Assembly (NCBI GenBank): GCA_964580285.1
Contig: CAZOKB010000002.1
Span: forward strand, 34,770 to 98,769
Length of the DNA stretch: 64,000 nucleotides
Direction: 5' to 3'
Source: an uncultured Bdellovibrionales bacterium
GTDB lineage: Bacteria; Patescibacteriota; Minisyncoccia; Moranbacterales; UBA1568
Positions within the stretch are counted from its first letter, which is position 1. Every line of letters begins with the position of its first letter. The position numbers and the translations under genes are program-made. The notes beneath the pieces were generated by a model. That model had not been told where the DNA came from. It did no database searches and saw only the letters and a list, made by a program, of their open reading frames with translations. Shown here piece after piece: positions 19,917 through 49,675 of the stretch.

Positions 19917-20789
19917 TTACATCTCTATAAAAGGAAAAAAGGATGAGACTTTGGAAATGAGGCTGGCGTGACGGAAAGGCTTAGAAAGAACGCGGTAGCG
20001 GCCGGTGATTTGATTGAGGCGGATCTTCCAGAGAGCGAAGATCATATTGATGGAATCACGGAAGACGCGAACATTGGTATTGCGCGGATCACGCTTGATG
20101 ACGACAGGGAGTACAGTCACCTTATAGTTGCGTTCGGTAGCCAGAAAAAGAATTTCTGCATCAAAGGCAAAGCGATTGACCGATGAGCGTCCAAAAAGGT
20201 CGAGGGCAGCCGCTCGGCGGAAGAGCTTAAAGCCGCACTGTGTATCGGAAAACTCAAAGTTTCCCAGGATAAGAATTTGGAGTAAATGGAAGGCACGGGC
20301 CATAAGAACGCGGTACCAAGGGGAGGGTTCTTCAAAATGTGACCCCGAGAGCAGGCGCGAGGCGATAGCGATATCGGCATTTGAGAGGGCGGGAAAAAAT
20401 GTTTCCAGTTCTGCAATCGGAATGGTAAGATCGGCATCGATAAACATCACTGGATCGAAGGTGCTCTTGAGGATACCAGCACGGACAGCAGCGCCTTTGC
20501 CACGGTTACGGGTAAAAGAAAAAACCTTGAGAGGAATATCAGTCCGCTCAGCTTTAAGTTTTTGAACGATATCAGGGGTGCCATCCGGACTACCATCAGT
20601 GACGACGATGATTTCAAAGCGAGTAAAACGCGGCTTGAGAAATTCTGCGACAGTAAGAATGTTGTCACGGATTACCTCGGCCTCCTTATAGCAGGGGATG
20701 ATGACGGAGATTTCTGGGTGCATAGCAATGGGTTTGGACTGGTGGTTTTTTGGATGAGATTCCTCGACTTCGCTCGGAATGACAGACAA
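19917..20789 (-). CDS. family-2 glycosyltransferase
   Basis: ISVIIPCYKEAEVI...IIVVTDGSPDGT...DADLTIP. Confidence 0.85.
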   Translation of the reverse strand: MSVIPSEVEESHPKNHQSKPIAMHPEISVIIPCYKEAEVIRDNILTVAEFLKPRFTRFEIIVVTDGSPDGTPDIVQKLKAERTDIPLKVFSFTRNRGKGAAVRAGILKSTFDPVMFIDADLTIPIAELETFFPALSNADIAIASRLLSGSHFEEPSPWYRVLMARAFHLLQILILGNFEFSDTQCGFKLFRRAAALDLFGRSSVNRFAFDAEILFLATERNYKVTVLPVVIKRDPRNTNVRVFRDSINMIFALWKIRLNQITGRYRVLSKPFRHASLISKVSSFFPFIEM

Positions 20790-21842: not shown

Positions 21843-22322
21843 CAATTAACAGTTAACAACTAACAGAAAACAAAGCCAGTAAACAGCGATGAAAATAACA
21901 GTCAACGGAGAACAGAAAACGAAAAGCAATGGAAACGGATATTCTGAAAGAAAAGATGGATTTTTTGGCAAGGGGAGTATACACAGCGACGAAGTTTTTT
22001 CCAAAAAGATGAAATATACGGACTTACCTCGCAGATCAGAAGGGCATCGTTGTCAGTAATCCTGAATTATATCGAAGGTTTTGCACGAGGAAGAAACAAG
22101 GAGTTGAAAAATTTTCTGCATATCTCCCATGGATCTCTTAAGGAGACGAAATATCTTCTTTTCTTCTGCGCTCGAGAGGAATATATCCAAAAAGATCAGT
22201 ATGAGAAATTAATGGTGTTGACGGATGAAATAGGTGCGATGTCATGGAAACGGATTGAAAAAATGAAGACGAAGATAGTAGATGATAATATAGTTGGTGT
22301 CGGTATCGTTAACTGTTAATTG
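21843..22322. mobile_element. 480-bp IR-bounded cassette carrying a four-helix-bundle gene (possible miniature insertion / IVS-like element)
   Basis: perfect 15-bp inverted repeat CAATTAACAGTTAAC (21843-21857) / GTTAACTGTTAATTG (22308-22322); arms extend as imperfect (AATAAAC)n / (GTTTATT)3 repeats. Confidence 0.35.
21957..22319 (+). CDS. four-helix-bundle protein (TIGR02436-like; family first described inside 23S rRNA intervening sequences)
   Basis: ...QKDEIYGLTSQIRRASLSVILNYIEGFARGRNKE...HISHGSLKETKYLL matches the YxLTxQxRRAxxSIxxNIAEG core; start set at in-frame ATG 21957 (ORF track lists only the TTG-initiated 22050 portion); N-terminal region shorter than canonical. Confidence 0.6.
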   Translation, partial: WIFWQGEYTQRRSFFQKDEIYGLTSQIRRASLSVILNYIEGFARGRNKELKNFLHISHGSLKETKYLLFFCAREEYIQKDQYEKLMVLTDEIGAMSWKRIEKMKTKIVDDNIVGVGIVNC

Positions 22323-22346: not shown

Positions 22347-23654
22347 ATGAAATTAGCATTTATCGGAGTGGGGTATGTGGGACTGGTAACGGGAGCATGC
22401 ATGGCGGAACTCGGGCATACGGTTATTTGCGCGGATGTTGATAAGAAGAAAATTGCCAAGCTCAAGCGAGGAGTGATGCCTATTTACGAATTAGGTCTTG
22501 AAGAGTTGGTAGAAAAAAATGTCAAAGAAGGGCGGCTCTCTTTTACTGCTTCTGTGGCAACAGCTATGAAGGCCTCAGAAGTAGTATTCAGCGGGGTCGG
22601 GACTCCGGAAGACAAGAAAACGGGTAAGGCAGATATGCAGTATGTGCATGCGGTCGCCCGTGAGTTTGGCAAGAACTTGAATGGCTACAAGATTTTGGTT
22701 AACAAATCGACGGTTCCGGTGGGAACGGCGGATATCGTGCGCGATATCGTAGCGCACGCGAGCAAAGGGAAATATGAATTCGATATCGTCTCGAATCCGG
22801 AATTCCTCCGTGAAGGAGCGGCGATCAAGGACTTTTTAAATCCTGATCGCGTGGTAGTGGGAGTGGCTTCGGACCGGGCTAAGGCGATCATGGAAAAAAT
22901 TTATCGTCCTATTGCTCGTACTGGCCGACCAGTGATGATGACGGATATCCGTTCGGCTGAACTGATTAAATACGCGAGCAATGCTTTCCTGGCGACGAAG
23001 ATCACTTTTGCCAATGAGCTGGCGAATTTCTGCGAGCTCTCGGGAGCGAATATCAAGGAAGTCTCAAAGGGCATGGGGCTTGACAGTCGCATCGGATCAC
23101 GTTTCCTCTATGCAGGTATTGGCTATGGCGGCTCGTGCTTTCCGAAAGATGTCCAGGCGCTCATGGAGACGGGGAAAGAATACCAGTTCGATTTCTCGAT
23201 CATCCGTGCGGCTGACCGGGTGAATGACCAACAGAAGATGCGTCCATACGCAATCGCCAAGAAACATTTTAAAAATCTCAAGGGGAAAACGTTTACACTC
23301 TGGGGACTTTCGTTCAAGCCACGCACAGATGATGTGCGCGAAGCCCCGGCGCTCTATGTGGCTGAGGCCCTGCTCAAGGCGGGTGCCAAGGTGCGGGTGT
23401 TTGATCCGGTGGCGATGGAGAATTTCTCGCTGGCATTCGCCGACAAGCGTCTCAAGTACACCGAGAGCGCGTATGAGGCCGTCGAAGGCGCTGATGCACT
23501 GCTTGTCATGACCGAGTGGGATGAGTTCCGTACGACAGAATATCCAGAGCTTGCTGCGCGTATGAAAGAACGTGTCATTATTGATGGTCGCAATATCTTT
23601 GATCGTTCTGAGGCTGAAAAAGAAGGGTTTGTGTATTACGGTATTGGAGTGTAG
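22347..23654 (+). CDS. ugd: UDP-glucose 6-dehydrogenase
   Basis: MKLAFIGVGYVGLVTGACMAELGH N-terminal Rossmann signature, catalytic GGSCFPKD, full length 435 aa. Confidence 0.9.
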   Translation: MKLAFIGVGYVGLVTGACMAELGHTVICADVDKKKIAKLKRGVMPIYELGLEELVEKNVKEGRLSFTASVATAMKASEVVFSGVGTPEDKKTGKADMQYVHAVAREFGKNLNGYKILVNKSTVPVGTADIVRDIVAHASKGKYEFDIVSNPEFLREGAAIKDFLNPDRVVVGVASDRAKAIMEKIYRPIARTGRPVMMTDIRSAELIKYASNAFLATKITFANELANFCELSGANIKEVSKGMGLDSRIGSRFLYAGIGYGGSCFPKDVQALMETGKEYQFDFSIIRAADRVNDQQKMRPYAIAKKHFKNLKGKTFTLWGLSFKPRTDDVREAPALYVAEALLKAGAKVRVFDPVAMENFSLAFADKRLKYTESAYEAVEGADALLVMTEWDEFRTTEYPELAARMKERVIIDGRNIFDRSEAEKEGFVYYGIGV

Positions 23655-23697
23655 GGGTATCAAGTGTACCGTGTAAAGTATTAAGTAGAGGAAACAC

Positions 23698-24849
23698 ATG
23701 AAGATTCTTTTTCTTAATTACGAATATCCTCCGCTCGGGGGTGGGGCGGGAAACGCGACGCAGTACCTGCTCTCGGAATACGCGAAGCAGCCTGATCTCG
23801 AAGTCCATCTGGTGACGTCGTCGATCGATGGGTTTCCACATGACGAATGCCTTGGCGGACGAGTGTTCGTGCATAGCGTCCCGATCGGAAAGAATGCCGA
23901 GAATCTTCATTTTCAGTCGCAGAAGGATTTGCTCATGTATGCCTGGCGTGGCTATGCTAAGGCGGAGGCGCTGCTTGCCGAAGGGGGTTATGATGCCATC
24001 CATGCGTTTTTTACGGTTCCTTGCGGATATATGGCTCTGCGGCTCGGTAAGAAGTATGGCGTGCCGTACATTGTGTCGCTCCGAGGAGCGGATGTCCCCG
24101 GATTCAGCGAACGGTTTACTTTTTTGTATACTTTTTTAAAACCTCTCATTCGGCAGGTCTGGCGTGAGGCAGCGCAGGTGATTGCAGTGAGCCTGGGCAT
24201 GCGGCGCTTGGCTGAAAAGACGGCACCAGCTCAACCAATGCGGGTGATCCCGAATGGCATTGCTCTAGAAGAATTTCCGGTGGCTACGATGAGGAATGAT
24301 GACGCCTTACGAGTGATTTCCACTTCGAGACTCACTCCGCGTAAAGGATTGCGTTTTCTTATTCAAGCCCTAGCTGAACTGAAGCATGAAAATCAGGCCA
24401 GAAATATCGAGGTACTGCTGATTGGAGATGGTCATGAGAGTGAGTCGCTGGAGCATTTGGCTCGGGAGAGCGGGGTGATAGAGCAGGTACAATTTATTGG
24501 TCGAGTAGAACATACTGAACTCAAGCAATGGTATGCGGGGGCGGATGTTTTTATTCTTCCGTCTCTCAATGAAGGTATGAGTAATGCGATGCTTGAGGCG
24601 CTTGCTTCGGGGTTGCCTCTTTTGGTAACACGGACAGGTGGAGCGGATGAAGTCTTGGAGGAAGGTATTAATGGGTTTGCGCTTGCTATGGGTTCGGCTC
24701 ACGATATCGCCGAAAAACTCTTGCGTTTATACGACGATCGAGCGCTTAGGCAGCGCATGGCTTTGGCGAGTCGGCGCAAAGCTGAGGCTATGAGCTGGGG
24801 TAAGGTAGCGGAACAGTACGTGCAGGTGTATCAGTCACTGAAACAATAA
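23698..24849 (+). CDS. GT4 glycosyltransferase
   Basis: MKILFLNYEYPPLGGGAGNA...NEGMSNAMLEALASGLPLLVTRTGGADEVL. Confidence 0.85.
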   Translation: MKILFLNYEYPPLGGGAGNATQYLLSEYAKQPDLEVHLVTSSIDGFPHDECLGGRVFVHSVPIGKNAENLHFQSQKDLLMYAWRGYAKAEALLAEGGYDAIHAFFTVPCGYMALRLGKKYGVPYIVSLRGADVPGFSERFTFLYTFLKPLIRQVWREAAQVIAVSLGMRRLAEKTAPAQPMRVIPNGIALEEFPVATMRNDDALRVISTSRLTPRKGLRFLIQALAELKHENQARNIEVLLIGDGHESESLEHLARESGVIEQVQFIGRVEHTELKQWYAGADVFILPSLNEGMSNAMLEALASGLPLLVTRTGGADEVLEEGINGFALAMGSAHDIAEKLLRLYDDRALRQRMALASRRKAEAMSWGKVAEQYVQVYQSLKQ

Positions 24850-24851
24850 GT

Positions 24852-25790
24852 ATGCAGCTGAAAAAAAAATTCTGGATACTTACTGTAAAGCTCGGTATTG
24901 GTACGGGGCTTATTGTGTGGCTCATAGAGAAAGTCAATTGGTCGGTGGTGCTTGAAAAGCTCGCGCATATGTCACCGATGTTTATCGGGCTGTATGTCGT
25001 GTTGCAGCTTGCGGGGAATATTATTTCCGCCAAGAAATGGCAGACTATCGCTTCGCATAAGCATCAGGAACTCATGTTCACTGTGAAGGAAGGTTTTTTT
25101 ACGTACTTAACTGGGGCGTTTATCAATAATTTCCTGCCGTCAACGCTGGGCGGGGATGCTTATAGAGGCCTCTGGTTGGCACAGAAAACCGAAGCCAAGG
25201 CTGCTTCGCTTTCTACGGTGGTGTTTGATCGTTTTATCGGTTTGTGGACGACCGCGCTCTTAGCTCTGATCTGTTCGCTTCCGCTCTGGAAACATTTTTT
25301 TACCGATACAGCCTTCCGTTTGGCTCTGCTTGGTTTGATCGGGTTTCTCTTGGTGGATCTCTTTATTACCTATGCCTATTTTCAACCATGGTTTCATCGA
25401 TTACTGTCCTGGTTACCGTTTCAGGTGCGGCGACTGATTCAAGAAGTGATTAGTTTTACAAAAAAAGGTATTTGGACCATTGGCAGCTTGTATTCGCTTC
25501 TGTTTGCGTTCGTAGGGATAGCATTCTCGAATTGGATGCTGTTTCATGCATTAGGCAGCCCTATTCATTTCCTCACTTTCCTGAGTGTGATTTTTCTGGT
25601 GACGATTATCTCGGCGGTGCCGCTCTCGATCAATAATATTGGTATCAAGGAATGGGCCTACGTAACTTTTTTTGCGTTGGTTGGAGTGAGCGCTGAGGTA
25701 GCTGTGACTGCTGCTTTACTCTCTCGTTTTATCCAGATGCTCATATCCTTTATCGCGCTCCCACATTATCTTCGCAGCAAGGGTCGTTAG
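24852..25790 (+). CDS. UPF0104 / lysylphosphatidylglycerol-synthase-TM-region family membrane protein (flippase-like)
   Basis: 8 TM helices, GGDAYRG motif characteristic of the family; follows a GT gene. Confidence 0.6.
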   Translation: MQLKKKFWILTVKLGIGTGLIVWLIEKVNWSVVLEKLAHMSPMFIGLYVVLQLAGNIISAKKWQTIASHKHQELMFTVKEGFFTYLTGAFINNFLPSTLGGDAYRGLWLAQKTEAKAASLSTVVFDRFIGLWTTALLALICSLPLWKHFFTDTAFRLALLGLIGFLLVDLFITYAYFQPWFHRLLSWLPFQVRRLIQEVISFTKKGIWTIGSLYSLLFAFVGIAFSNWMLFHALGSPIHFLTFLSVIFLVTIISAVPLSINNIGIKEWAYVTFFALVGVSAEVAVTAALLSRFIQMLISFIALPHYLRSKGR

Positions 25791-25804
25791 GGGGGGGCAG
25801 GAAG

Positions 25805-28081
25805 CTATTCTTCAAAATGATAGACGCGGACATACTGGGATGGCCGATCGTTAATATTAAGTTCAAACACAGGATCCGCTTTGGTATAGTACTGATCAAA
25901 ACGGATCAACCCAGGTTTTTGATGAGCGATTTCTGAGACCATCATTTTCGCGGTGCGGTTCTTGCGATCCGAAGAAACAACAATATAATCCAGTCCTTCT
26001 CGTCGAAGAGTTTCATAGTTGCGACCGCGCTTACAATGACCCACGAAGAATTTACAGACCCCGTCTTTGTCGGTCCAGACGAGGAGGTTTTTTGCGTCTG
26101 GAAGATTATTGAGGTATTGGGCGGCCTCATAGCTCCCTGAACCCATATCTTTCACATTCGTATGGTACTGATTTGGAAGGAGACTGGAGGCATAGGAGAG
26201 CGGGAAAGGAGTTGTGGCGAGCGTACCGGTACCGATAAGTAGTAAGAGAGTGGTTACCAGGAGTGCGGAATGGCGGCGTAGGAAAACGAAGCGGTGCTCG
26301 AGTGGTTTGAGTACCCAGGTGAGGGAAATGCCAGCCATGATGGCGGCGATAGGGAAGAGGATAATCTGATAGCGTACGATCATGGCCACATTGTTGACGG
26401 TAGCTCCGAGGTAGTAGAGGAGGATAAAAATGATGAAGTAGAAGGTAGATCGACCACGGACGCTTTCAAAAAAGGTCAGCTTGAGTAAGGCTATAGCCGC
26501 GGTAACCAGCAGGAAGAAAGCCAGGGGAAGAATACCAAAAATGAAAGGGTAGAAATTCGTGAGGAAGATGCCGATAAAATCACTGCGACTCCCGATAGTT
26601 TTCGGTGAAGCCAGAAGTTCGGAAAAATCATACGGGAGCATATGGTTCCAGGCGATAGTGAGTACGGCTAAGAGACTCACGCAAAAGAGAGCGCTCACAG
26701 TGATGGTTATGTACCGCTTGAAACGATCCAGAATGGCGAGGGCAGCGCTGACGATACGTGCGCGGTTAGCGAATTGATCAACCAGGATAAAGGCAATCAG
26801 CATGAGGAAAAGCGGTGCCACTTTTTCGAAGGCTTGACTGTACAGAGTGGAGGTGAGGATCTTGGAGGGTTTGATCCAGACCGCCGGAAAGAACGCGTAG
26901 AAAGTAGCGAGGGCGGCATAGATAAGGAGACCGAGTTCGATCAAGGAGCGCTTCAGGAAAACTCCAAATAACTGCTGCGTCGGCCGATGGTAGAGGTATT
27001 CGAGAAAGATGAGTCCGATAAAAAAGACAAAGAGAATATTGGCCACATATTTGGTCAGGAGAGCGAGGCCGAGAAAAACACCTGCCAGAATGAGGTAGCG
27101 AGCCAAGCGTTTTTTAAGGAAGAGGAGGTAGGAAAGGAGCGAAAGGGGAGTGAAAATCCACAGGAGCGAATCGGGGTTGATGATCTTTGCCATGCCGATG
27201 AGGATGGGTGAAGTGGCCAGAAAGGCATAAGAAAAAAGAGCGGTTTTTTTGCCGAAGAGACGCTCGAGAAAAAAGTAGAACAGAGGCAATAAAAGTGTGA
27301 TGACAATGAGTTCGGGAAGCCGGAAGGTAAGATAAAATGCTTCAATAGGATTGTTTTCATCGCTGCCCTTGATGTATTTGTGTTCCTTAGGAGCTTTGAA
27401 CCACATACCCGGACCAGTCGCCCAGGCGACCGTGATGCCTGGCTTATCGCTGATATTTGTTCCTTTCCAGTTGTGTTCTTCTATTTTATGCCAGTATTTA
27501 CCGATGCGTCCGTTATACCAGAGCGGTTCATCAACCGCAGCAAACTTGGTGAGTCGCACCATCGCGAAACTAAAGAAGATGAGGGTGCTCACGAAAATAA
27601 GCAGGAGCGTAATGGCTCCTTGGCGGCGGAACCATTCGCCTGGAGTGAGACCTCGGGGGGCGGAGGAGTTCGGTTGGGTAACGCGCATACTTGAGAGAGC
27701 AAGAGCGGAAATCAGGAATCCAGCGAGCATCATATAGGCGCTCTGTGCGATCTGGAACAGGTAGTGGAAATTTTTTGATTCAATAAGACCGTAGGTGAGA
27801 ATAAACCACGCCGGAAAAGTGGTGAACAATAGTTTACGCAGCAGTGCTCGCCAAGCGGTTGGCCGATTGTAATAGAACATGGCGCCGAGGAGAGCTGTGC
27901 CGAGCAAGGCAAACCCGGTATAAAAAAGATTATTGCTTTCGGCTATACGCAAGAAGGTCAGCGACGTTGTTTGGGGGGCAATGAAAAAAAGCGTATTGAT
28001 ACCAAGGAGTACGCCGATCACTGAGAAGAGACGATTTTCGAGGGTAGACAAAGTGGCTGCTAAGGGTTTCCCGAGTGTCAT
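25805..28081 (-). CDS. GT-C fold membrane glycosyltransferase, GT39/ArnT-like (paralog 1, with N-terminal extension)
   Basis: multi-TM N-half, FAAVDEPLWY loop motif after a TM helix analogous to the DE motif of PMT/ArnT; ORF stays open 130 codons upstream of the GT39-like core so the long start is retained. Confidence 0.55.
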   Translation of the reverse strand: MTLGKPLAATLSTLENRLFSVIGVLLGINTLFFIAPQTTSLTFLRIAESNNLFYTGFALLGTALLGAMFYYNRPTAWRALLRKLLFTTFPAWFILTYGLIESKNFHYLFQIAQSAYMMLAGFLISALALSSMRVTQPNSSAPRGLTPGEWFRRQGAITLLLIFVSTLIFFSFAMVRLTKFAAVDEPLWYNGRIGKYWHKIEEHNWKGTNISDKPGITVAWATGPGMWFKAPKEHKYIKGSDENNPIEAFYLTFRLPELIVITLLLPLFYFFLERLFGKKTALFSYAFLATSPILIGMAKIINPDSLLWIFTPLSLLSYLLFLKKRLARYLILAGVFLGLALLTKYVANILFVFFIGLIFLEYLYHRPTQQLFGVFLKRSLIELGLLIYAALATFYAFFPAVWIKPSKILTSTLYSQAFEKVAPLFLMLIAFILVDQFANRARIVSAALAILDRFKRYITITVSALFCVSLLAVLTIAWNHMLPYDFSELLASPKTIGSRSDFIGIFLTNFYPFIFGILPLAFFLLVTAAIALLKLTFFESVRGRSTFYFIIFILLYYLGATVNNVAMIVRYQIILFPIAAIMAGISLTWVLKPLEHRFVFLRRHSALLVTTLLLLIGTGTLATTPFPLSYASSLLPNQYHTNVKDMGSGSYEAAQYLNNLPDAKNLLVWTDKDGVCKFFVGHCKRGRNYETLRREGLDYIVVSSDRKNRTAKMMVSEIAHQKPGLIRFDQYYTKADPVFELNINDRPSQYVRVYHFEE

Positions 28082-28155
28082 AGATGTTGTACCATGATAT
28101 TAAGGCCAACAGGCGAATTTCCCGGCTGGTTTGCCCCTATAATAGCGTAAAATGT

Positions 28156-29976
28156 ATGGATATTAAAGGCAGGCATGGGCAATGGGCTTCTGGTGTGGTC
28201 GTGGCGCTCATGGTTATCGTTTGTGTGGGATTCTTTCTTCGGAGTTACCATTTTGGCGACTGGCTACACTTCGAGCTTGATCAATCGCGCGATGCCCGGG
28301 TTATCGATGATGCTTTCAGAGGTTCGGTGGCGGATCTTCCGCTTCTCGGACCCAAAGCAGGAGGAACTTTTCTCCGACTGGGTCCCTTCTTCTATTATTT
28401 CCAATACCTCTCCGGTCTTGTATTTGGTGCTCACCCGGTAGGCTATGCGATGGGAGTGATGCTTCTTTCGGTGGCAACGATAGGAGTCTTCTTTCTTTTC
28501 GTGCGACGTCTTTTTTCTGACCGGATCGCCTTGGGTCTTGCGGGGATTCTGGCGACCTCTCTCTTTTTTGTCATGTATGGTCGTTTTGCTTGGAACCCGA
28601 ACCCGCTGCCATTTTTTGTGCTCTTGGGTTTGTATGCGCTGCTTCGATCGGTTGATTTGCACGAAGAACATCGAGGATACTGGTGGCTTCTCTGTGTAGC
28701 TGCTTTTGGTATCGCGTCACAGCTCCATTTTTTAGCCTTTTTGGCTTTACCCATCATACTGGGAATCTTTTTGTTGTTACGTCGCCCACGGTATTCATGG
28801 AAAGCGTGGGTGGGAGCGGTGCTGCTTGTGGGAGCGCTCTATTTCCCGGTGCTTTTAAATGAGATCGAGACCGGTGGGCGGAATTCACAAGAATTCATTC
28901 AGGCAGTCACCAAAAAATCAACCAAAGAAAGCCGCTCGCTTCCGGAGAAATTTTTGCGCGATGTGAGTGAGCATGGCTTGGCGAGTTTAGTCATAGTCAC
29001 AGGTTTTGAAGGAGGGGCGTTTCCTGCATTTCGTATCGAAGATGGTACCCTCGTACGGCGCTGCGTTAACCGTTGCGATGCTGGTAAATGGTATGGGTCG
29101 GCAGCGCTTGTAGTTTTGGCTGTGGCAATAAGCGCTTTCTTCTGGCTCTGGTGGCGGGAACGCGAACGAGCGAAAGCGGATTTTCTCCTCCTGACGGGCA
29201 TCTGGTTTGGAGTGACTTTCCTTCTTTTTCTCCCGCTTTCTTATGGCATTGCTCCGAGATTTTTTCTTCTTTCTGGACCAGTCTTTCTTATCTTTCTCGG
29301 AGCCCTTTTGACACTGATGGAACGTCTGTTTTATCGGCACTCCGTGGGGAAAATGTTGAGTCTCTCTCTTCTCGGTCTGTGTATCGGTTCGAATCTTTTC
29401 TTTGTGGCTGGTCGGTTTAGCGAACTGGCTCGGGCGGGGAGTGAAGCGGTGGATAGCGCCCCGGATCGTGTCTTAAAAGAACGTATTCGGGTGACATTGG
29501 AACAGCAGAACAAGATCATTGATTTTCTGGCTTCCCGCTCCAAAGAGACTGGTTATCCAGTATATATGTTTAGTGAGCCGCAGCATCGCCGAGCGCTCAA
29601 ATACTTGCTTGAGCGGCGCAGTGTTGAAAATGCGGTCTTGGGTTTTGATGGGGTGTATCGGCAAGGGGTGTACTATATCATTTTGCGGGCTCATTCGGAC
29701 CACGAAGATGCTCTCCGTAAGTACCGTGCGAGTTATATGGTTGGGAAGAAAACAAGTTTTGGTACGTTGGTCGCTTTCGAACTTTTTCCAAAACCAGAAG
29801 CTATCGGAGGAGAGCGCCAGGACTTTAGTCTAAAAAAACCTTCCGATTCCACAGCCCCGCCTCGCTATACCTGGCGTGAGTGGCTGGATCGCAATCAAAC
29901 CATACAGACAGATAGCGAAGCGGATGATACGGTGGATGCGTCGATCGATGATACTACCGATGAAGGCGGTAATTAA
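28156..29976 (+). CDS. GT-C fold membrane glycosyltransferase, GT39/ArnT-like (paralog 2)
   Basis: TM1 then LRSYHFGDWLHFELDQSRDARVIDDAF, >10 TM helices, C-terminal soluble domain; start placed at MDIKG (ORF opens at 28084, 2 bp from divergent start). Confidence 0.65.
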   Translation: MDIKGRHGQWASGVVVALMVIVCVGFFLRSYHFGDWLHFELDQSRDARVIDDAFRGSVADLPLLGPKAGGTFLRLGPFFYYFQYLSGLVFGAHPVGYAMGVMLLSVATIGVFFLFVRRLFSDRIALGLAGILATSLFFVMYGRFAWNPNPLPFFVLLGLYALLRSVDLHEEHRGYWWLLCVAAFGIASQLHFLAFLALPIILGIFLLLRRPRYSWKAWVGAVLLVGALYFPVLLNEIETGGRNSQEFIQAVTKKSTKESRSLPEKFLRDVSEHGLASLVIVTGFEGGAFPAFRIEDGTLVRRCVNRCDAGKWYGSAALVVLAVAISAFFWLWWRERERAKADFLLLTGIWFGVTFLLFLPLSYGIAPRFFLLSGPVFLIFLGALLTLMERLFYRHSVGKMLSLSLLGLCIGSNLFFVAGRFSELARAGSEAVDSAPDRVLKERIRVTLEQQNKIIDFLASRSKETGYPVYMFSEPQHRRALKYLLERRSVENAVLGFDGVYRQGVYYIILRAHSDHEDALRKYRASYMVGKKTSFGTLVAFELFPKPEAIGGERQDFSLKKPSDSTAPPRYTWREWLDRNQTIQTDSEADDTVDASIDDTTDEGGN

Positions 29977-30024: not shown

Positions 30025-31557
30025 ATGGAACTGAATTGGAAGAAAACATGGATGGTTCTCGGTCTTATCTTGGTACTTGGTTTTGGTATGCGTGTGTATC
30101 ATTTGGGAAATAATGCCTTCGTAGCGGATGAATTCTTAGACATGAATTCTGCATATGGTTATTTCAAAACTGGGGAATGGAAAGCGTGGGATTTCAATTC
30201 TGGTCAGTCGAGTCAAGTGAATATCAATGAAGCGCGGGATGAGCGGGCGAATATCTACAAGTGGCAGGTAGCCGAGCTTTTCCGTGTACTGCCACCGACC
30301 GAGGCGACTGCGCGGAGTGTGAGCGTCTTCTGGGGTGTTGTTTCGATGCTCGTTGTGTTCTGGAGCACTCTTGTTTTCACAAAACGCAAAGAAGTTGCTC
30401 TCATAGCCACTTTCCTGTTTGCGGTATCGGTGGCAGGGATTATTTTTGATCGGCGGCTGCGGATGTACGCGATGTTTTTTCCGGCTTACCTGGCTTTTGC
30501 GACAACGGTATATCAGGCCTTGGAGTTGGAATATCGCGGCAGAATTAAAGCCTTGCGGATGCTCTGGGAAAAGACAGGAATCCATGGATGCTATGCACTT
30601 CTTACCGCTCTTCTCGGAAGCATATCTCTTCTGGTACACCAGCTTTCGGCGGTGATGGCGTTTTCTCTCGCAGCATACCTCTTGGTACAAGCGGTGCTAG
30701 CTTATCGCGAGACGAAGTCGGTGAAAAATAAGTATGCCGTACTCTTCGGGCTTGGTATGCTGAGTGTGGGAGGGTTAGCTCTCGTTGTGCCGCAGTTCGT
30801 CCGCTCGTTTGCAGCGGGACTTATCTGGTTTGATGATCACTATAGTTACATCGGGTATGTACTCCAGGATTTCGCGCACCCATTACTGGGAGTGTTACTC
30901 ATGGTATATGGTGTCCATTACCTCGGTATCCAAATGAAAGACAAGAAGGCTGCCTGGTATGTCACGCTTTCATTCCTGGTACCACTCGCGCTCGCGATTT
31001 GGTTCTTCCACCGCAATGCTGGTCCGCAGTATATTTACTTCGCGCAGTCATTCGGTTTGATCTTGGCAGCCCTCGGAATGTGGCGTATCTGGACCGCTGT
31101 AAGCGAGAAATTTCCTGAATGGGGCAAGCGAGGGATGTACACCGCTCTCGTCTTTCTTTTCCTCTTAATTCCAAATTACGGCTACTTCTTAGAAGAGAAC
31201 AATACCTACCATGAAACATCGTCGGGTGGGAATCCAAATTATCGAAAAGTGTTTACTTTTTTCAAAAAGGAACGACTTGCGAGCGATGTCCTTGTAACGA
31301 GGAATTTCCGAAACTACTATTTTTCGGGAGCAAATGTCCGCATCTTTGATCTCGGGGATGAGATTGATCGTAGCCGTATGACCGTGAATCAATTCTTGCT
31401 TATTCGAGAATCAAATCCGACCGGATGGGTGATCCTTTCCGACAATGATATGAATGACTATATTTCCAAGGATCTTCGAATGTATTTTGAGCGGAACCTT
31501 GAGCGAGTAAGTAATGATCAGGTTCGCGGATCGGTGTTTGTGTATACGTGGAGATAG
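30025..31557 (+). CDS. GT-C fold membrane glycosyltransferase, GT39/PMT-like (paralog 3)
   Basis: TM1 then MRVYHLGNNAFVADEFLDMNSAYGY (DE motif loop), ~11 TM helices. Confidence 0.7.
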   Translation: MELNWKKTWMVLGLILVLGFGMRVYHLGNNAFVADEFLDMNSAYGYFKTGEWKAWDFNSGQSSQVNINEARDERANIYKWQVAELFRVLPPTEATARSVSVFWGVVSMLVVFWSTLVFTKRKEVALIATFLFAVSVAGIIFDRRLRMYAMFFPAYLAFATTVYQALELEYRGRIKALRMLWEKTGIHGCYALLTALLGSISLLVHQLSAVMAFSLAAYLLVQAVLAYRETKSVKNKYAVLFGLGMLSVGGLALVVPQFVRSFAAGLIWFDDHYSYIGYVLQDFAHPLLGVLLMVYGVHYLGIQMKDKKAAWYVTLSFLVPLALAIWFFHRNAGPQYIYFAQSFGLILAALGMWRIWTAVSEKFPEWGKRGMYTALVFLFLLIPNYGYFLEENNTYHETSSGGNPNYRKVFTFFKKERLASDVLVTRNFRNYYFSGANVRIFDLGDEIDRSRMTVNQFLLIRESNPTGWVILSDNDMNDYISKDLRMYFERNLERVSNDQVRGSVFVYTWR

Positions 31558-31580: not shown

Positions 31581-31608
31581 GCCCCGATTCGGTTGTCGGG
31601 GCTTTTTA
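31581..31608 (+). terminator. intrinsic terminator after GT39 paralog 3
   Basis: GCCCCGA-ttcggttg-TCGGGGC followed by TTTTTAT. Confidence 0.7.
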
Positions 31609-31856
31609 TGCTGCATGGAGCGCTTTCATTTCTCGGCGCTCTCCATTTGACTTGCGGGTTGGAGGGTCCTGGCGACGATGCGCCAGAAGAGGGAGATTCC
31701 TTGGAGCGTGATTGCGCACGCGGCAAGAGTGAAGAAGAATGGATTCGGTGGTGTCACGGTGATTCCTTTCTTTGTGTTGAGGTTAAGTGGCTACTGCTCT
31801 TTTATTGTAGATCTGATATTTGGTGGCGTAAAGAAATTGTCAAGATGGTTTTTGGG

Positions 31857-31914
31857 AAAATAAAAGCCCTTCGGGAGGTCTCCTGATTTTCAGGGGGAAT
31901 TCCTCTCGAAGGGC
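31857..31914 (-). terminator. intrinsic terminator for high-GC small gene
   Basis: 13-bp stem (GCCCTTCGAGAGG / CCTCCCGAAGGGC, 1 mismatch) then TTTTATTTT on the minus strand. Confidence 0.45.
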
Positions 31915-31944
31915 AGTGTGCGCGGCTGTTTGGCCGCAGCTCGA

Positions 31945-32334
31945 TCAGCTGACGCCGCCGGTGCCGACCAGGCCGATGTTCGCAGCCGCGGCGAGCTCTT
32001 CGCGCGAGACGCCGATGGGCGGGGAGGCCGTCATGCCACCGAGCATCGTCTTGGAGTCGCCGGCACCGACGTTGATCATTGCGCGCTTGTCGACCTTGAT
32101 GGCCAGCGCGGTGGCGTCTCCGAAGCCACCGCCGGTGCCGTTCTTGGCGGTCAGGGCATTGGCGGGCGGCACAGACTTGGCGTTGTCGGCGTAGGCGTAC
32201 ATGCTGCCGGTTTCCTTGGCGACCGTGTTTTCGGCACTCTGCGTGACGGCAGCGGTCGGCGGGTCGGAAGCGGCGAAGGCAGCGGGCGCGGTCAGGGCAA
32301 CGAGGGCAGCGAGCAACAGGTGTTTCCGTTTCAT
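31945..32334 (-). CDS. small secreted protein (Sec signal peptide), very high GC, likely foreign origin
   Basis: MKRKHLLLAALVALTAPAAFA/AS signal peptide with AxA site; Gly/Ala-rich mature part; ~68% GC versus ~50% in flanks. Confidence 0.5.
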   Translation of the reverse strand: MKRKHLLLAALVALTAPAAFAASDPPTAAVTQSAENTVAKETGSMYAYADNAKSVPPANALTAKNGTGGGFGDATALAIKVDKRAMINVGAGDSKTMLGGMTASPPIGVSREELAAAANIGLVGTGGVS

Positions 32335-32397
32335 GATGCGGTCTCCTGTGACAGTGGATGGGTTTGCTGATTACAAACCTGAATCGATGTGTTGATT

Positions 32398-32450
32398 CAA
32401 ATCAGCAGGATGGGAATTTGCACTGAAAAAACGCCCAATCTGCTGATTTG
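32398..32450. promoter_or_regulatory. 11-bp perfect inverted repeat CAAATCAGCAG / CTGCTGATTTG upstream of the high-GC gene
   Basis: arms at 32398-32408 and 32440-32450 separated by 31 bp, 64-116 bp upstream of the minus-strand start codon. Confidence 0.3.
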
Positions 32451-32532
32451 GATGGCCTGTTTGAGCCATTGAAAGTACTAAGAGCTATTATCTATAAAAT
32501 GGCATCTCGTGTCAAGTTTTTTTGAAGGCTAT

Positions 32533-34005
32533 CTAAGACTTCTTGCCGAAGAGCTTGGCAAACGGTGCCCAGTCAGATGGTTTCAGTTCTCCGAAGAGCC
32601 GAAGGAGAATGAAGTAAAAGACGAAGAGGCAGGCGCCCGAGATGATGAAGGTAATGGTTCCATGTGGCAGGAATTTCGCAAGGAGGGTGATGAGGAGAGA
32701 GGAGATGAATGAGAGGGCGATGGTGCGCATCGGAAGCCTCGCAGTGAAGTGTTTCTCGGTATATATGAGGATGGCGATCATGAGGAGGAGCGAGATGATG
32801 GTCGTTGAAAGGGCGGCGCCGATGAGCGCGTACTTTGGAATAAGAAGGAAATTGAGGATGATCATGCCAAGGAAACCGAAAAAAGAGAGTTTCATCGGGA
32901 TTTTTACCAGATTTGCGCCATTGAGAGCGAAAGAAAGAACATAGAATACTGTAAGGAATCCGACGCCGATGGTGAAGATGTTCATGGGTGCTGCGGCGTC
33001 GAGGTATTTTTCGCCATAAAAAAGATTGAGGATTTGTGTGGAATAGGCGATCATGAGGGTGACAAATGGAAAGAGGAGGAGTGTCATAAGCCTGAGGGAT
33101 TTGTTGACGAGATTTTTTGTTTCCTCGGTATTTCGCTCGGCGGTCGTTTTTGATATTGCTGGGAGGAGTATGATAGTGAGCGCGTAAAAGAGATAGTAGG
33201 GGATGCGACCGACCGTGATGGCGGCATTGTAGATACCGGTCAGGTAGTCGCTTTGGAGAAGACTCTTCACGAAATAGAGATCGAGCGTGAGGATGAATTC
33301 GTAGAAAAGAAGAAAAAGCGTGAGTGGCCAGGCATAGGTAAGGAGGGTTTTTCCGGAGAAATCGATGGTTTCATTTTTCGCCTGCTTGGTGGCAGGGAAG
33401 TATTTGTGCGTGATGAAGATATCGCACAGAAGAGCGATAGTGAAAACAAAAAGTGGTGCGGCGATGTAGCCTGAGACTGCGCCTTGCACACCGAAGAAGT
33501 AGGCGAAGCTGATAATGAAAACGATGCGAGCTAGGGCACGGGTAGTTTTTAGAATAGCCTGCAAGCGGAAGAAATGAAGGCCGGTGTAGTAGTAGAAATA
33601 AAATGAGGCAGCGGCGAAGGCTGGGATGATGAGGGAAGAAAGCTGAAAGAGCGGAGTAAGCGTGGCATCATGAAGCGCCCAGGCGAGAAGCGGAGATGAG
33701 AAGAAGAAAAGAGCCGTAACTCCGAGCATAAGCATGGCTTGCATGCGCATAGCTTTGTATTTGATGCCCATGATTTTCTCCGGAGCGCTCTCGAATATTT
33801 CAGCGAGATATTTGGACATGGCAGTCGGGATTCCATTGCCAATAAGGATGATAATCATGGTTGTCATGGTAACAATGATGCTGTAACGACCATAATCAGC
33901 AGGCCCGAGAATGCGGCCGACCGAAGAATGGATGACATACCCGGCGATATTGAAGATGATTTCCGACACTGTGAGCCAGATGAGCGCGGAGGAGAATTTT
34001 TTCAT
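32533..34005 (-). CDS. MOP-superfamily (Wzx/MurJ-like) polysaccharide flippase
   Basis: 490 aa, 14 TM helices, composition and length typical of 'polysaccharide biosynthesis protein' flippases. Confidence 0.75.
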   Translation of the reverse strand: MKKFSSALIWLTVSEIIFNIAGYVIHSSVGRILGPADYGRYSIIVTMTTMIIILIGNGIPTAMSKYLAEIFESAPEKIMGIKYKAMRMQAMLMLGVTALFFFSSPLLAWALHDATLTPLFQLSSLIIPAFAAASFYFYYYTGLHFFRLQAILKTTRALARIVFIISFAYFFGVQGAVSGYIAAPLFVFTIALLCDIFITHKYFPATKQAKNETIDFSGKTLLTYAWPLTLFLLFYEFILTLDLYFVKSLLQSDYLTGIYNAAITVGRIPYYLFYALTIILLPAISKTTAERNTEETKNLVNKSLRLMTLLLFPFVTLMIAYSTQILNLFYGEKYLDAAAPMNIFTIGVGFLTVFYVLSFALNGANLVKIPMKLSFFGFLGMIILNFLLIPKYALIGAALSTTIISLLLMIAILIYTEKHFTARLPMRTIALSFISSLLITLLAKFLPHGTITFIISGACLFVFYFILLRLFGELKPSDWAPFAKLFGKKS

Positions 34006-34110
34006 AGTGATTTTATTCGAAAGAATACCTCTATTATAGCGTATTTTGGCTTATTTACGAAAAATAAAAAGGGATACCGCAGTATCCCATGTCGTGATTG
34101 CCCGGTGAAG

Positions 34111-41025: not shown

Positions 41026-41688
41026 ATGGAAGGACTGGAAGAGTTTGTCTGGCTTGCATTGCCAGGGTTGGTGACTCTCTTAGTTGTTTTGCTGAGCGTG
41101 ATTTTGGTGTGTGTAGTAGCTATTTTCAGAGCGCAGTATGTACACGCTCACGCTCAGCCGGGAGTATTGCCGGTGTACTCCTCTCAGAATCCTGTTTCGG
41201 ATCGAATGCTCACGGAGTATCGAGGGCTATGTCGTTGCGATAAATTGATAGCTGATCTCAAGGCGTTTTTCCCGAATGTATTTTCTTCGGAAGATATTGG
41301 TGAAATCCATGGCTATCTCAACTTTATCGCTCAGGATATACATCTGTTCTTGGCTAAGATGCCGATCCGCATTCACTTGTCAGAGACGTGTCCCTGCGAT
41401 CATGTCCGGCCAGGGCAGGGGTTTTTGATGATGATGCCGCATGATTTTGAAGAGGGGGTTATCAAATACCAGACGCTTTTCACGCTTCCTGTTGAAGCCT
41501 GCGTGGGAAGTCTGGAAGCCATTCAGGCGGAAGAGGAAACGGTATTTGAACCCCTCGGCCAAAGCAGCTGTTCGCAATCACGTTGCTCAAGCCAGAAACT
41601 GATCGTGGCTTGTCCTGATTCAAGAACGGACGATAATTATCAGGTGATCGTTTTTGTGCCCAAATACGTTGTACGTACCCGGCGGTGA
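41026..41688 (+). CDS. hypothetical protein with N-terminal TM anchor
   Basis: 220 aa, one N-terminal hydrophobic helix, followed by strong terminator. Confidence 0.45.
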   Translation: MEGLEEFVWLALPGLVTLLVVLLSVILVCVVAIFRAQYVHAHAQPGVLPVYSSQNPVSDRMLTEYRGLCRCDKLIADLKAFFPNVFSSEDIGEIHGYLNFIAQDIHLFLAKMPIRIHLSETCPCDHVRPGQGFLMMMPHDFEEGVIKYQTLFTLPVEACVGSLEAIQAEEETVFEPLGQSSCSQSRCSSQKLIVACPDSRTDDNYQVIVFVPKYVVRTRR

Positions 41689-41702
41689 TTAACCCCTTAA
41701 AG

Positions 41703-41737
41703 GCCCTAGATGCGAAAGCATCTAGGGCAATTTTATT
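41703..41737 (+). terminator. intrinsic terminator
   Basis: GCCCTAGATGC-GAAA-GCATCTAGGGC (11-bp stem, GAAA tetraloop) then AATTTTATT. Confidence 0.75.
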
Positions 41738-41782
41738 ACTAAGTGAATACAACCGAGTATCGGTGCATTTGTCGAATACCTG

Positions 41783-42268
41783 TTATTTTCGATACAAAGA
41801 AAAAACGTGGTTCGGTTGATTCGTCGGCCAGACACGGATAGCGGCCGTTTCGCCGAGAGGACTTTCGGGAGTGATGGTTCTTTCGCTCGCTGAAGGTACG
41901 GTAATGACGCGGCTTTCTATGGTCTCTGAATCATTTTTTATTTCGTAGGCAAAAGTTTCGGTTGAGGTATGATTGACGATGATGAAACGATTATCCCGTA
42001 TATTAGGATCAGCAAAGGCGAGTGTCCACCAGTTTTTCTTATAATCAGGATCCAGTTCGCGGTCATTTTTCATAAAAAGAAAAGCGCCTGAAAGAAAGAT
42101 GAGTCCAGCGATGATGAAAGCGGAGAGGTGCCGCTTGAGAAGGGTATCAGCGTGCATAGATGTGAATTTTATCAGAGGCATAGATGCGGGAAAATTCCGG
42201 AGATTTTTCAAACTGCGGGGCGTCAAAGCGAGGATTGACCATGATGTATTTGACACCGGTACCTTCAA
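41783..42268 (-). CDS. hypothetical protein with N-terminal signal/anchor (start uncertain, possibly 42181 or 42157)
   Basis: hydrophobic LSAFIIAGLIFLSGAFLF segment; overlaps upstream gene end if the longest ORF is used. Confidence 0.4.
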   Translation of the reverse strand: MKVPVSNTSWSILALTPRSLKNLRNFPASMPLIKFTSMHADTLLKRHLSAFIIAGLIFLSGAFLFMKNDRELDPDYKKNWWTLAFADPNIRDNRFIIVNHTSTETFAYEIKNDSETIESRVITVPSASERTITPESPLGETAAIRVWPTNQPNHVFSLYRK

Positions 42269-48006: not shown

Positions 48007-48630
48007 ATGATTCTGACTCCGAAAATTGAGAAAGCTATCACTCGGTCCGCCGAACTGCATCGGCATCAGGAGCGCAAGGGGAATGGAGCACCCTATATCG
48101 TGCATCCGTATTCAGTGGCGTTTCTTCTAGCGCACTATACGGAAGATGAAGATATTATTTGCGCCGGTCTCTTACATGATATCTTGGAAGACGTGCCGAG
48201 CTACGGAGCGCAGCGGATGCAAGAGGAGTTTGGTGAACGGGTATACCGGATTGTGCGAGAGGTGACGGAAGACCGTGATCCGACTATGGGCTGGCGACTA
48301 TTGCCGCGTCAGCGTCAGTGGAAGGAACGCAAAGTACGTTATATTGAAAATCTCAAGAACGACAGCGAAGAAGCGCTGCTCATCGCCTGTGCCGACAAGA
48401 TCCAGAACCTCCGTTCATTAGTAGATACCTATGCCTTGCGAGGGGACGGGCTCTGGTCGAGTTTTCGCTCGGGTAAAGAAGAGATGTATTGGTTTTATAC
48501 GACCGTGTTTGAGGTGATTGCTGAGCGGTTCCATCACCCGCTGGTCCACGAGTTCAAAAAATCCTTAGAAGAAGCAAAAAAACAGGTTTTTCTAGGGGGT
48601 AGGAGCGGAACTATTGACAGGTCTATTTAA
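48007..48630 (+). CDS. RelA/SpoT-type HD-domain (p)ppGpp hydrolase-like protein (small alarmone hydrolase-like)
   Basis: AELHRHQERKGNGAPYIVHPYSVA...ICAGLLHDILEDVP matches the SpoT hydrolase HD motif (HxxQxR...PYxxHP...LLHDxxED). Confidence 0.7.
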   Translation: MILTPKIEKAITRSAELHRHQERKGNGAPYIVHPYSVAFLLAHYTEDEDIICAGLLHDILEDVPSYGAQRMQEEFGERVYRIVREVTEDRDPTMGWRLLPRQRQWKERKVRYIENLKNDSEEALLIACADKIQNLRSLVDTYALRGDGLWSSFRSGKEEMYWFYTTVFEVIAERFHHPLVHEFKKSLEEAKKQVFLGGRSGTIDRSI

Positions 48631-48879
48631 AAGTGCTATACTGTTTTTTCATCCTGAAATTTGACGGATGAGAAGAAGGATGGTAAAAACCTTCTTAAAG
48701 AGTTCTTTGGGAATTTTCAGTGATGCGACAATAGGCACAAGAGTGATCATCGGTAGCTTTTTTGTTCGGAAAGAAGATTTCGGAGCAAAGAAGCTACCGA
48801 CGTGGTAGTTGTAGTACCCCCTTTTGAGGAGAAACTGCATGTCCACCCATTCGCCCCCCGTCAATGTCGATGAGTCTTA

Positions 48880-49375
48880 TATCTTTTTCGTCAAGTCCGC
48901 CGCCAGCATCGCCATGGGCATCAGCAAGATCTGATCCGGCACACGCGGCCGCTGATCCTCAGTAGGAAAAATCCTTGCTCGAGAGAGTAGGGTGCTTTCC
49001 ATGAGCTGATAGGATCGTCTGCCACCGGGTCTGCAAGTCCAGCCGGCGCCGGTCGCGGGACCATATTTTCGGTCGACCACAAGTCTTCCGGAGATTCGTT
49101 GCCCGCGACCGGCCTCCCGGCACCACCTTGCGCGTAAGCAGTGGCATGCGAGCCGCTGTCGTCTTCGGCATCTCGCGCGCCGGCCTATCTCCCTAAAGTT
49201 TGGGAGGCCGCCGCGCACGCCGTACGCGCATCACAGGAGGCAAGTATGACCATCGCGTCAACATGTATTCCCGCTTGTCTCGGTCCGCCACCACTCGCTA
49301 GCCAGCACCGCGACGCTTGGGCCGTCGTATGGACCGGCTGGCCTGATTGATTCAGGCTGAGACACTCCATCAACG
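48880..49375 (+). ncRNA. candidate structured ncRNA (unclassified), ~65% GC, ORF-poor
   Basis: no credible ORF on either strand; dense perfect stems (e.g. 12-bp GCCGGTCGCGGG 49048-59 / CCCGCGACCGGC 49102-13); ends in a terminator; boundaries approximate. Confidence 0.3.
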
Positions 49376-49420
49376 CTCCCGTGTGAATCTCTCATGATTC
49401 GCCCGGGAGTTTTTCTTTTT
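49376..49420 (+). terminator. intrinsic terminator at 3' end of GC-rich segment
   Basis: CTCCCG-(21 nt)-CGGGAG followed by TTTTTCTTTTT. Confidence 0.5.
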
Positions 49421-49675
49421 CTGAATACAAGTATATTTTCATTGTGAGAGATCTTGTGTGTAAGCAGGCGTTCTCTTGGTATCCGAGTTTTCTTTTTGGG
49501 AGGCTCTTTTTGTCTGAGCGGGCATGGTTTCCGTGTGAAACACGGAAGAGCTCAAACAAAAAATGAGGAAGCGAAGCGGCTGGGCGAAGCGCACGTACTC
49601 CCAAAAGGGAAATTTGGATACCAAGAGGTTTTGCTATTTTTTCTTCGTTCTCTTTTGCTGATACAATAGATTTAT

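Follow-up and report, generated by a model that had tools for sequence, protein, structure and literature searches.

The stretch of 64,000 nucleotides analysed in this work, hereafter the window, is as a whole a compositionally mosaic surface-glycan locus with GC contents of 0.33-0.52. It includes a short GC-rich islet located between a gene for a 510-aa GT39-like protein and a gene for a Wzx-type flippase, as the first-pass annotation of this DNA had placed it. Three genes for glycosyltransferases of the PMT/PMT_2 type (PF02366, PF13231) and a Wzy-like gene are also found beside the islet. As judged from its anatomy, the islet would be a single-gene unit of ~660 bp (about 31857-32521) that lies on the minus strand and carries its own terminator. 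The features assigned to it and to its borders are given in Table 1. In the lineage-specific spacer at its left side, the ORFs of 108 or 112 aa called by different gene callers conflict with one another, and neither has family support.

Table 1. Features of the GC-rich islet and its borders, in positions of the window.
Feature	Position	Strand	Description
Lineage-specific spacer	31603..31856	.	GC ~0.50; between the bidirectional terminator of the 510-aa gene (31581-31602) and the islet terminator
Intrinsic-terminator-like element	31857..31914	-	13-bp stem (12 pairs), 23-nt loop with a small inner hairpin, followed by UUUUAUUUU
GC-rich tract	31911..32314	.	GC 0.70 against a background of 0.47; coincides with CDS and 3' UTR; from segmentation and composition profiles
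3' UTR, stop codon to terminator	31915..31944	-	30 nt; GC 0.67, counted from the sequence
CDS, 129-aa orphan protein	31945..32334	-	Stop codon included; GC3 0.85, GARP 0.41, consistent period-3 GC signal
Signal-peptide coding region	32272..32334	-	Residues 1-21, predicted; read from the sequence
Shine-Dalgarno site, putative	32342..32346	-	AGGAG, 8 nt upstream of ATG; read from the sequence
5' leader, putative	32335..32480	-	~146 nt, with the start set from the promoter match; GC ~0.42, host-like
Inverted repeat/leader hairpin	32395..32453	-	Perfect 11-nt cores CAAATCAGCAG / CTGCTGATTTG; -24.4 kcal/mol, z = -4.2
Sigma-70-like promoter, predicted	32487..32515	-	TTGACA - 17 nt - GATAAT; 11/12 matches
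Strain-level breakpoint	32521..32522	.	L001 and L007 match the window leftwards and carry different sequence upstream

The borders of the GC-rich tract were defined by two-state maximum-likelihood segmentation, with a GC content of 0.696 within the tract as compared with 0.474 beyond it; support for the left edge covers 31865-31933 and that for the right edge 32297-32329. In windows of 200 bp, the GC content is 0.675-0.70 across 31900-32299 and ~0.42-0.54 in either flank. When the 64-kb window is read in segments of 400 bp (mean GC 0.452, sd 0.059), its maximum of 0.695 falls at 31911, and the jump from about 50% to about 68% GC first annotated at roughly 31,900-32,400 is thus real and marks the richest 400 bp of the window. 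The ORF at 31945..32334 has GC1, GC2 and GC3 values of 0.63, 0.56 and 0.85, whereas GC3 is 0.45-0.62 in the neighbouring genes and 0.52 +/- 0.05 in the host, with a maximum of 0.64 among the genes of the window.

The contribution of the protein sequence to these values was assessed by codon resampling, in which the protein sequence was held and the codons were redrawn 5000 times from the usage of 29 neighbouring genes. Amino-acid composition alone raised the expected GC content from 0.48 to 0.57. The resampled expectation was 0.571 +/- 0.015 for GC and 0.531 +/- 0.042 for GC3, as compared with observed values of 0.682 and 0.853 (z = 7.6), which none of the 5000 draws reached. Amino-acid content hence accounts for only about half of the GC excess of the ORF, and the composition is foreign beyond it, as the earlier description of GC3-rich foreign codons had implied. 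Codons ending in C and codons ending in G are both enriched, and those ending in A are nearly absent. The encoded protein is rich in GARP and poor in FYMINK residues to an extent outside the host range, the GARP fraction being 0.41 against 0.25 +/- 0.03 in the host, where it does not exceed 0.30. The GC content of the 3' UTR indicates that the GC-rich DNA runs beyond the CDS. The enrichment of both C- and G-ending codons, the GARP-rich protein and the GC-rich 3' UTR together form the signature of mutational pressure in a high-GC genome.

The product of the minus-strand ORF begins with MKRKHLLLAALVALTAPAAFA/AS. Its start comprises the n-region MKRKH, with the expected charge, a hydrophobic core LLLAALVALTAPAAF (mean Kyte-Doolittle value of 2.7 over residues 6-16) and the residues A-F-A at positions -3 to -1, with a predicted cut at A21/A22 and without a lipobox cysteine. 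This n-h-c pattern, as read from the sequence, agrees with the initial assignment, and the protein is predicted to carry a classical Sec/signal-peptidase-I signal. The predicted mature protein of 108 residues is rich in Ala, Gly and Thr, with a Pro/Ala/Thr-rich N-terminus (ASDPPTAAVTQSAENT) and Gly-rich stretches, and includes 18 Ser and Thr residues but no Cys and no Trp. AlphaFold, run on the mature protein without an alignment, gave mostly coil with a pLDDT of 48 and no confident fold; the mature protein is probably largely disordered.

Along the ORF, one codon position holds a GC content of 0.80-0.90 in every 90-nt sub-window. Comparison of the ORF in L001 with that in the window revealed three SNPs, two of which are at codon position 3; the other is A10V, a conservative change inside the hydrophobic core of the signal peptide. 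The overlapping plus-strand ORFs described before are present (92 and 150 aa). Only one other frame, on the plus strand, shares the third-position GC signal; it contains the 92-aa ORF and is broken by a stop codon. A homologue search with this frame found none, and the idea that the islet is a donor gene read in the opposite direction was rejected.

Promoter matches of at least 11/12 were found at three places in the 64 kb, all of them intergenic or at gene starts. From the one at the right side of the islet, transcription would yield a 5' leader with a predicted folding energy of -43.8 kcal/mol (z = -4.7) and four predicted hairpins, of which the inverted repeat forms the largest; three copies of TGCTGATT lie within 84 nt of the leader. 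The core CAAATCAGCAG at 32398-32408 is perfectly matched by its complement at 32440-32450, and both are embedded in a 25-nt pair (32395-32419 and 32429-32453) with 80% complementarity. The cores are situated 64-116 nt upstream of the ATG, as originally reported. No other perfect copy of the core was found in the 64 kb, and its interpretation as a dispersed repeat or a regulon motif was therefore discarded. The suggestion that the repeat could be an operator needs to be modified. The adjacent genes include no regulator gene. Relative to the -10 box, the repeat is found 34-92 nt downstream, and its perfect cores are 31 nt apart; hence a leader RNA hairpin fits at least as well as an operator. 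The predicted hairpin would affect mRNA stability or translation, and the three copies of TGCTGATT leave protein binding at the leader possible.

At the other end of the unit, the arms of the terminator-like element (31866-31878 and 31902-31914) are 13 nt long and 92% complementary, with a predicted energy of -26.9 kcal/mol (z = -4.3). The 13-bp-stem terminator annotated earlier was thereby recovered, with 12 of 13 positions paired and a U-run. It has the GC-rich stem and the U-tract of an intrinsic terminator but a loop longer than the usual 3-8 nt, and it was missed by a consensus scan because the loop exceeds 8 nt. Such a structure would be atypical yet plausible as a terminator.

A second GC-rich patch is present in the window at 48.65-49.43 kb. 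It has no period-3 signal and its fold scores z = -7.3. The islet and the second patch are laid out alike: a near-consensus promoter is followed by a leader that is richer in AT and includes a long hairpin, then by a GC-rich payload and lastly by a terminator. Both are placed exactly at intergenic boundaries.

Relatives of the orphan protein were sought in several collections. A word-indexed search of 5.8 billion clusters returned only 99%-identical variants from the same species, and an exhaustive phmmer search of 1.84 billion representatives returned only same-species variants together with P0002, which was dismissed as a repetitive junk ORF matching the signal-peptide region only. No relative of the gene was detected in plasmids by tblastn and blastn, and none of the protein in phages by tblastn, in IMG/VR or among PDB sequences. 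Searches of Pfam, NCBIfam, PHROGs and PADLOC assigned the protein to no family. Weak matches spanning the signal peptide and the first part of the mature protein were obtained for DUF4148 (PF13663) and for the mycobacterial hemophore Rv0203 family (TIGR04530), with E values of 0.48 and 0.066 and scores of 11-13 bits as compared with cut-offs of 27 and 120. Membership in either was rejected, as the scores are below the cut-offs and the matches are limited to the signal or a low-complexity region. Altogether, no donor homologue was found among about 15 billion proteins, and the high-GC donor lineage that had been expected to be identifiable did not emerge from the cluster, representative, plasmid, phage, IMG/VR or PDB searches. 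By these searches, the protein appears to be a strict orphan whose donor lineage cannot be named. As a donor homologue is absent, it is composition and phyletic pattern by themselves that point to a horizontal origin.

In the assembly collection, the exact 129-aa protein is recorded in 37 blocks or more and on at least 21 contigs (NCBI, JGI/IMG, ENA, Logan), the longest contig carrying the gene being 135.8 kb. Eleven loci from different runs are 98.9-100% identical to the window through both GC transitions and have the same junctions. Mis-assembly and contamination, both raised as concerns in the first-pass annotation, are refuted by the same junctions in many independent assemblies. The orphan gene is fixed in all sampled strains. 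The more divergent strains L001 and L007 also retain the unit and switch to unrelated sequence exactly 5' of the -35 box (Table 1), so that a recombination joint marks the right-hand edge of the unit. The alternative 27-mer at this breakpoint was searched for and not found anywhere else. The population is nearly clonal: its SNPs occur in a few recombination tracts only, against an otherwise clonal background, and therefore the SNP-free islet was not accepted as a sign of a sweep.

The 510-aa membrane protein flanking the islet has hundreds of homologues, among which identity falls directly from 100% to 69%. Those with a named source come mostly from Candidatus Moranbacteria, and one source calls the protein a GT39 glycosyltransferase; L012, a relative that carries a homologue, is a MAG labelled Bdellovibrionales. 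The drop in identity from 100% to 69% suggests that the host belongs to an isolated lineage of Moranbacteria (CPR). The 510-aa gene and the Wzx-type flippase gene are kept in convergent orientation in six relatives (L012-L017), whereas the contents of the slot between them differ. In the two closest relatives, the slot includes homologous ORFs of 127 and 146 aa (38% identity, E = 2e-20), three others have unrelated ORFs of 187, 197 and 217 aa, and L016 has an 88-nt gap with no ORF. None of the slot ORFs of the relatives resembles the orphan ORF, has an extreme GC3 or matches a known family, and they do not look like secreted proteins. The orphan gene is thus missing at the syntenic position in all related genomes that were examined (the same six).

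At the DNA level, homology to L012 ends at 31554 and restarts at 32537, and the entire ~975 bp between the flanking genes is lineage-specific. A remnant of the ancestral slot gene was looked for in the window and none was found, nor was a counterpart of the promoter and leader found in the relatives. There are no closer relatives with which the insertion ends could be mapped, as neighbour-protein identity falls from 100% to 69%. Since the slot of the relatives holds other ORFs or nothing, the event would be a replacement in a hypervariable slot and not a simple insertion. Accordingly, of the single-gene insertion proposed at first, the single-gene unit and its absence from relatives stand, but insertion gives way to replacement, as the two closest relatives carry a different gene. 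The proposal that it was recent can be bounded only: the event would postdate the split from lineages whose neighbouring protein is ~69% identical, with the gene being fixed in all sampled strains.

Traces of mobility were also sought. No tRNA was found near the islet and no integrase or mobility gene in its flanks, and the window has no second copy of the unit. A check of both GC transitions for a target-site duplication, as had been advised, gave nothing convincing. The only candidate was a 9-bp direct repeat, GGTCTCCTG, at 31877-31885 and 32340-32348. Its chance frequency is ~0.02, and only when boundary windows of +/-40 nt are taken. The left copy is part of the terminator hairpin, the right one corresponds to the ribosome-binding site, and the pair is probably coincidental. 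Likewise, terminal inverted repeats formed by the terminator loop and the loop of the leader hairpin (14/17 matches) were rejected as being at chance level for a 1.5-kb region.

The explanation preferred here, with a probability of about 0.68, is that the islet is a genuine chromosomal single-gene unit with an exported product, that its coding part and 3' UTR came from a high-GC genome, and that it entered the surface-glycan locus of a Moranbacteria lineage by slot replacement, taking the place of the small slot gene that the nearest relatives carry. The unit would consist, in order, of the near-consensus sigma-70-type promoter, the structured ~146-nt leader, the AGGAG site, the 129-aa ORF and the hairpin with U-run terminator. 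After export and cleavage behind A21, its product would be a 108-residue protein that is extracellular or located at the cell surface. As the GC contents of the promoter and leader are host-like, the donor fragment would begin almost exactly at the start codon, and this would require that it was captured behind a resident promoter or remodelled later.

An alternative considered unlikely is that the DNA is foreign but the ORF fortuitous and non-functional, the fragment having been coding in a high-GC donor and then fixed by drift in the near-clonal population. Stop codons are rare at 68% GC, such that 3 or 4 of the 6 frames are open across the islet, the protein has neither relatives nor a predictable fold, and polymorphism is too low to show constraint; all this would be expected of such a fragment. 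However, a random fragment would seldom have a start codon exactly at its beginning and a terminator at its end, and here the ATG, the AGGAG at 8 nt, the n-h-c signal with AxA, the stop codon and the terminator are all correctly placed, with an 11/12 promoter and a structured leader upstream, and the ORF is intact in every occurrence. Only a slim chance is given to a native or de novo gene whose GC content results from selection, for example from extreme codon bias in an Ala/Gly-rich, highly expressed secreted protein. The rise in expected GC due to amino-acid composition, the preference of the host for some C-ending codons (e.g., CTC for Leu), the near-consensus promoter, which fits high expression, and the nearly exact coincidence of the GC-rich tract with the CDS would all agree with it. 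Selected codons, in contrast to mutational GC pressure, do not explain the joint enrichment of C- and G-ending codons, and the non-coding 3' UTR is also 67% GC. Moreover, the GARP-rich, FYMINK-poor protein is beyond the host range, no gene of the window exceeds a GC3 of 0.64, and no homologue is present in other Moranbacteria despite the conserved flanking genes.

A GC-rich patch in a genome of lower GC content is often an RNA gene, and the second patch of the window, with its z of -7.3, behaves as such. Nevertheless, it is very improbable that the islet tract itself encodes a structured RNA without coding function, or represents a DNA element bound by protein, with an incidental ORF: on neither strand does folding exceed that of dinucleotide shuffles (z = +1.3 and +0.4), a strong period-3 signal is present, and a scan against Rfam 15 gave no match at the gathering threshold or even at E <= 1. 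The opposite behaviour of the second patch demonstrates that these tests can tell coding DNA from RNA, and for the islet they favour a coding nature. Finally, chimeric assembly, or the joining of contaminant DNA to the contig, might produce the abrupt change of composition and the lack of anything related outside the same species, but this reading is refuted by identical junctions in at least 11 independent samples processed by different pipelines (Logan, JGI, ENA, NCBI).

It is also conceivable, though quite unlikely, that the islet belongs to a set of two or more self-contained GC-rich units, specific to the lineage, that arose by a common mechanism, either as small promoter-carrying cassettes or by repeated capture of host DNA. 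If an episymbiotic CPR cell had repeatedly captured DNA from a high-GC bacterial host, the orphan protein would be a surface effector that derives from the host or is directed at it, and the adjacent PMT enzymes might glycosylate it. The islet would gain in interest if the two GC-rich units proved to share an insertion mechanism, or if a high-GC host proved to be the donor.

CPR bacteria, whose genomes are tiny, live attached to other cells, and most of their secreted and surface proteins are uncharacterised. Such proteins are likely tools of the CPR lifestyle. Under the preferred reading, that of a unit of high-GC origin with an exported product, the islet would mark gene flow from a high-GC partner into the Moranbacteria lineage, and a foreign secreted orphan that is fixed in the species and located beside protein-glycosylation genes would be a candidate host-interaction factor. 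With low confidence, it is suggested that the orphan protein acts at the cell surface or in host contact and may be a target for O-glycosylation by the adjacent PMT-family enzymes. Features of a PMT substrate, as far as they can be recognised from sequence, are present, including a Sec signal, Ser/Thr residues in Pro/Ala-rich stretches and adjacent PF02366 and PF13231 genes.

High-GC Actinobacteria produce small Sec-secreted proteins rich in Ala, Pro and Thr that are O-mannosylated by PMT (GT39) enzymes, e.g., mycobacterial Apa. The orphan protein is similar to the Apa-type proteins in its Sec signal, its Pro/Ala/Thr-rich mature N-terminus, its high-GC codons and the adjacent genes of the PMT/PMT_2 family. 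However, it has no sequence similarity to any of them, and the slot ORFs of the relatives are not secreted-looking.

A literature search yielded nothing on islets of this kind in Moranbacteria. As compared with the horizontally acquired orphan islets known from surface-polysaccharide loci such as O-antigen and capsule gene clusters, the present one differs in that no donor, mobility gene, tRNA or flanking repeats were found, in that only the CDS and 3' UTR have a foreign composition whereas the promoter and leader look native, and in that the host is a CPR bacterium. It is alike in its atypical GC content and codon usage, in comprising one small gene with its own predicted promoter and terminator, in its syntenic absence from relatives, and in its location in a mosaic glycan locus with a flippase, Wzy and glycosyltransferases. 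Orphan genes of atypical GC content are well known from variable slots of glycan loci, and the islet is a further example of this phenomenon.

The GC content of the window changes in a large step at ~19 kb. Most of the first part (1-19 kb) has a GC content of 0.33-0.41 (GC3 ~0.3), the exception being 12.9-16 kb, where an Asn-synthase gene and its neighbour lie in DNA of GC ~0.45, and values of ~0.48 (GC3 ~0.52) are found from 19000 to 64000. The low-GC part carries genes for GT2 and GT4 glycosyltransferases, a methyltransferase, a CofD-GT2 fusion and a second flippase-like protein. Given this compositional step, the surface-glycan locus is a mosaic, and was probably put together from several sources.

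Besides the islet, a second GC-rich stretch occupies a 1-kb gap without genes, flanked by an HD-domain gene on one side and a glycosyltransferase gene on the other. This stretch begins directly after an 11/12 promoter match that has an extended -10 (48614-48642), and at its end, near 49378-49425, is a CUCCCG...CGGGAG hairpin followed by a U-run. A period-3 signal was absent from 48614-49430, and the RNA was predicted to fold far better than shuffled sequences (z = -7.3 for the plus strand and -3.9 for the minus strand). No match was found in Rfam, even at E <= 1, nor in Pfam for the ORFs of this stretch, nor in the plasmid comparison. Two small ORFs preceded by strong Shine-Dalgarno sites were read by eye. 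In two relatives, L019 and L020, this stretch is missing and its flanking genes are ~100 nt apart. This ~780-nt stretch is a candidate for a new structured RNA or for a foreign element.

Features of the second GC-rich stretch and of strain variation (window positions unless a contig is named)
Feature	Position	Strand	Details
Second GC-rich stretch	48614-49430	+	GC 0.61 at 48880-49400
Small ORF, 31 aa, MSTHSPPVNVDESYIFFVKSAASIAMGISKI	48839-48934	+	GAGGAG-7nt-ATG; inside second GC-rich stretch; read by eye
Small ORF, 34 aa, MTIASTCIPACLGPPPLASQHRDAWAVVWTGWPD	49247-49351	+	AGGAGG-6nt-ATG; inside second GC-rich stretch; read by eye
Unrelated replacement sequence	L001 1-27; L007 3-29		joins window at 32521/32522
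Dense SNP tracts	22500-24000; 25000-29500; 30500-31000; 41500-42000		strain comparison

The flippase gene to the right of the islet (32537-34007) is 82% identical at the DNA level to its counterpart in the related islet-free locus L012 (12240-13710), whereas the neighbouring 510-aa gene is only 68% identical. This contrast suggests that the flippase gene either is under much stronger constraint or has been exchanged between lineages by recombination. In two strains (runs SRR12404957 and DRR438487; contigs L001 and L007), the islet and its promoter are retained and the flippase end is replaced, exactly at the -35 box (32521/32522), by the unrelated sequence GGAGTGCCATATGTGGTGGACGCATAC, at which both contigs terminate. 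A search for this 27-mer found no occurrence beyond these two contigs. On the other side of the islet, the spacer between the two terminators (31603-31856; 250 nt, GC ~0.50) is annotated differently by different pipelines, as a 108-aa minus-strand gene or a 112-aa plus-strand gene, both lacking family support. The spacer may also hold a hydrophobic minus-strand ORF of 43 aa (31626-31757), for which a promoter is weakly matched at 31832-31804.

SNPs between strains are clustered in a few dense tracts, with 9-29 SNPs per 500 bp, against an otherwise identical background, and 100% identity over 8-16 kb is seen among several samples that come from different studies. The pattern indicates that the population is nearly clonal and widely distributed, and that recombination has brought in foreign alleles only locally.

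An 89-aa gene at about 22050-22320, placed from coordinates 20015-20284 of locus L003, matches PF05635 (23S_rRNA_IVP), a family to which the Avd accessory proteins of diversity-generating retroelements also belong. Such retroelements are common in CPR genomes.
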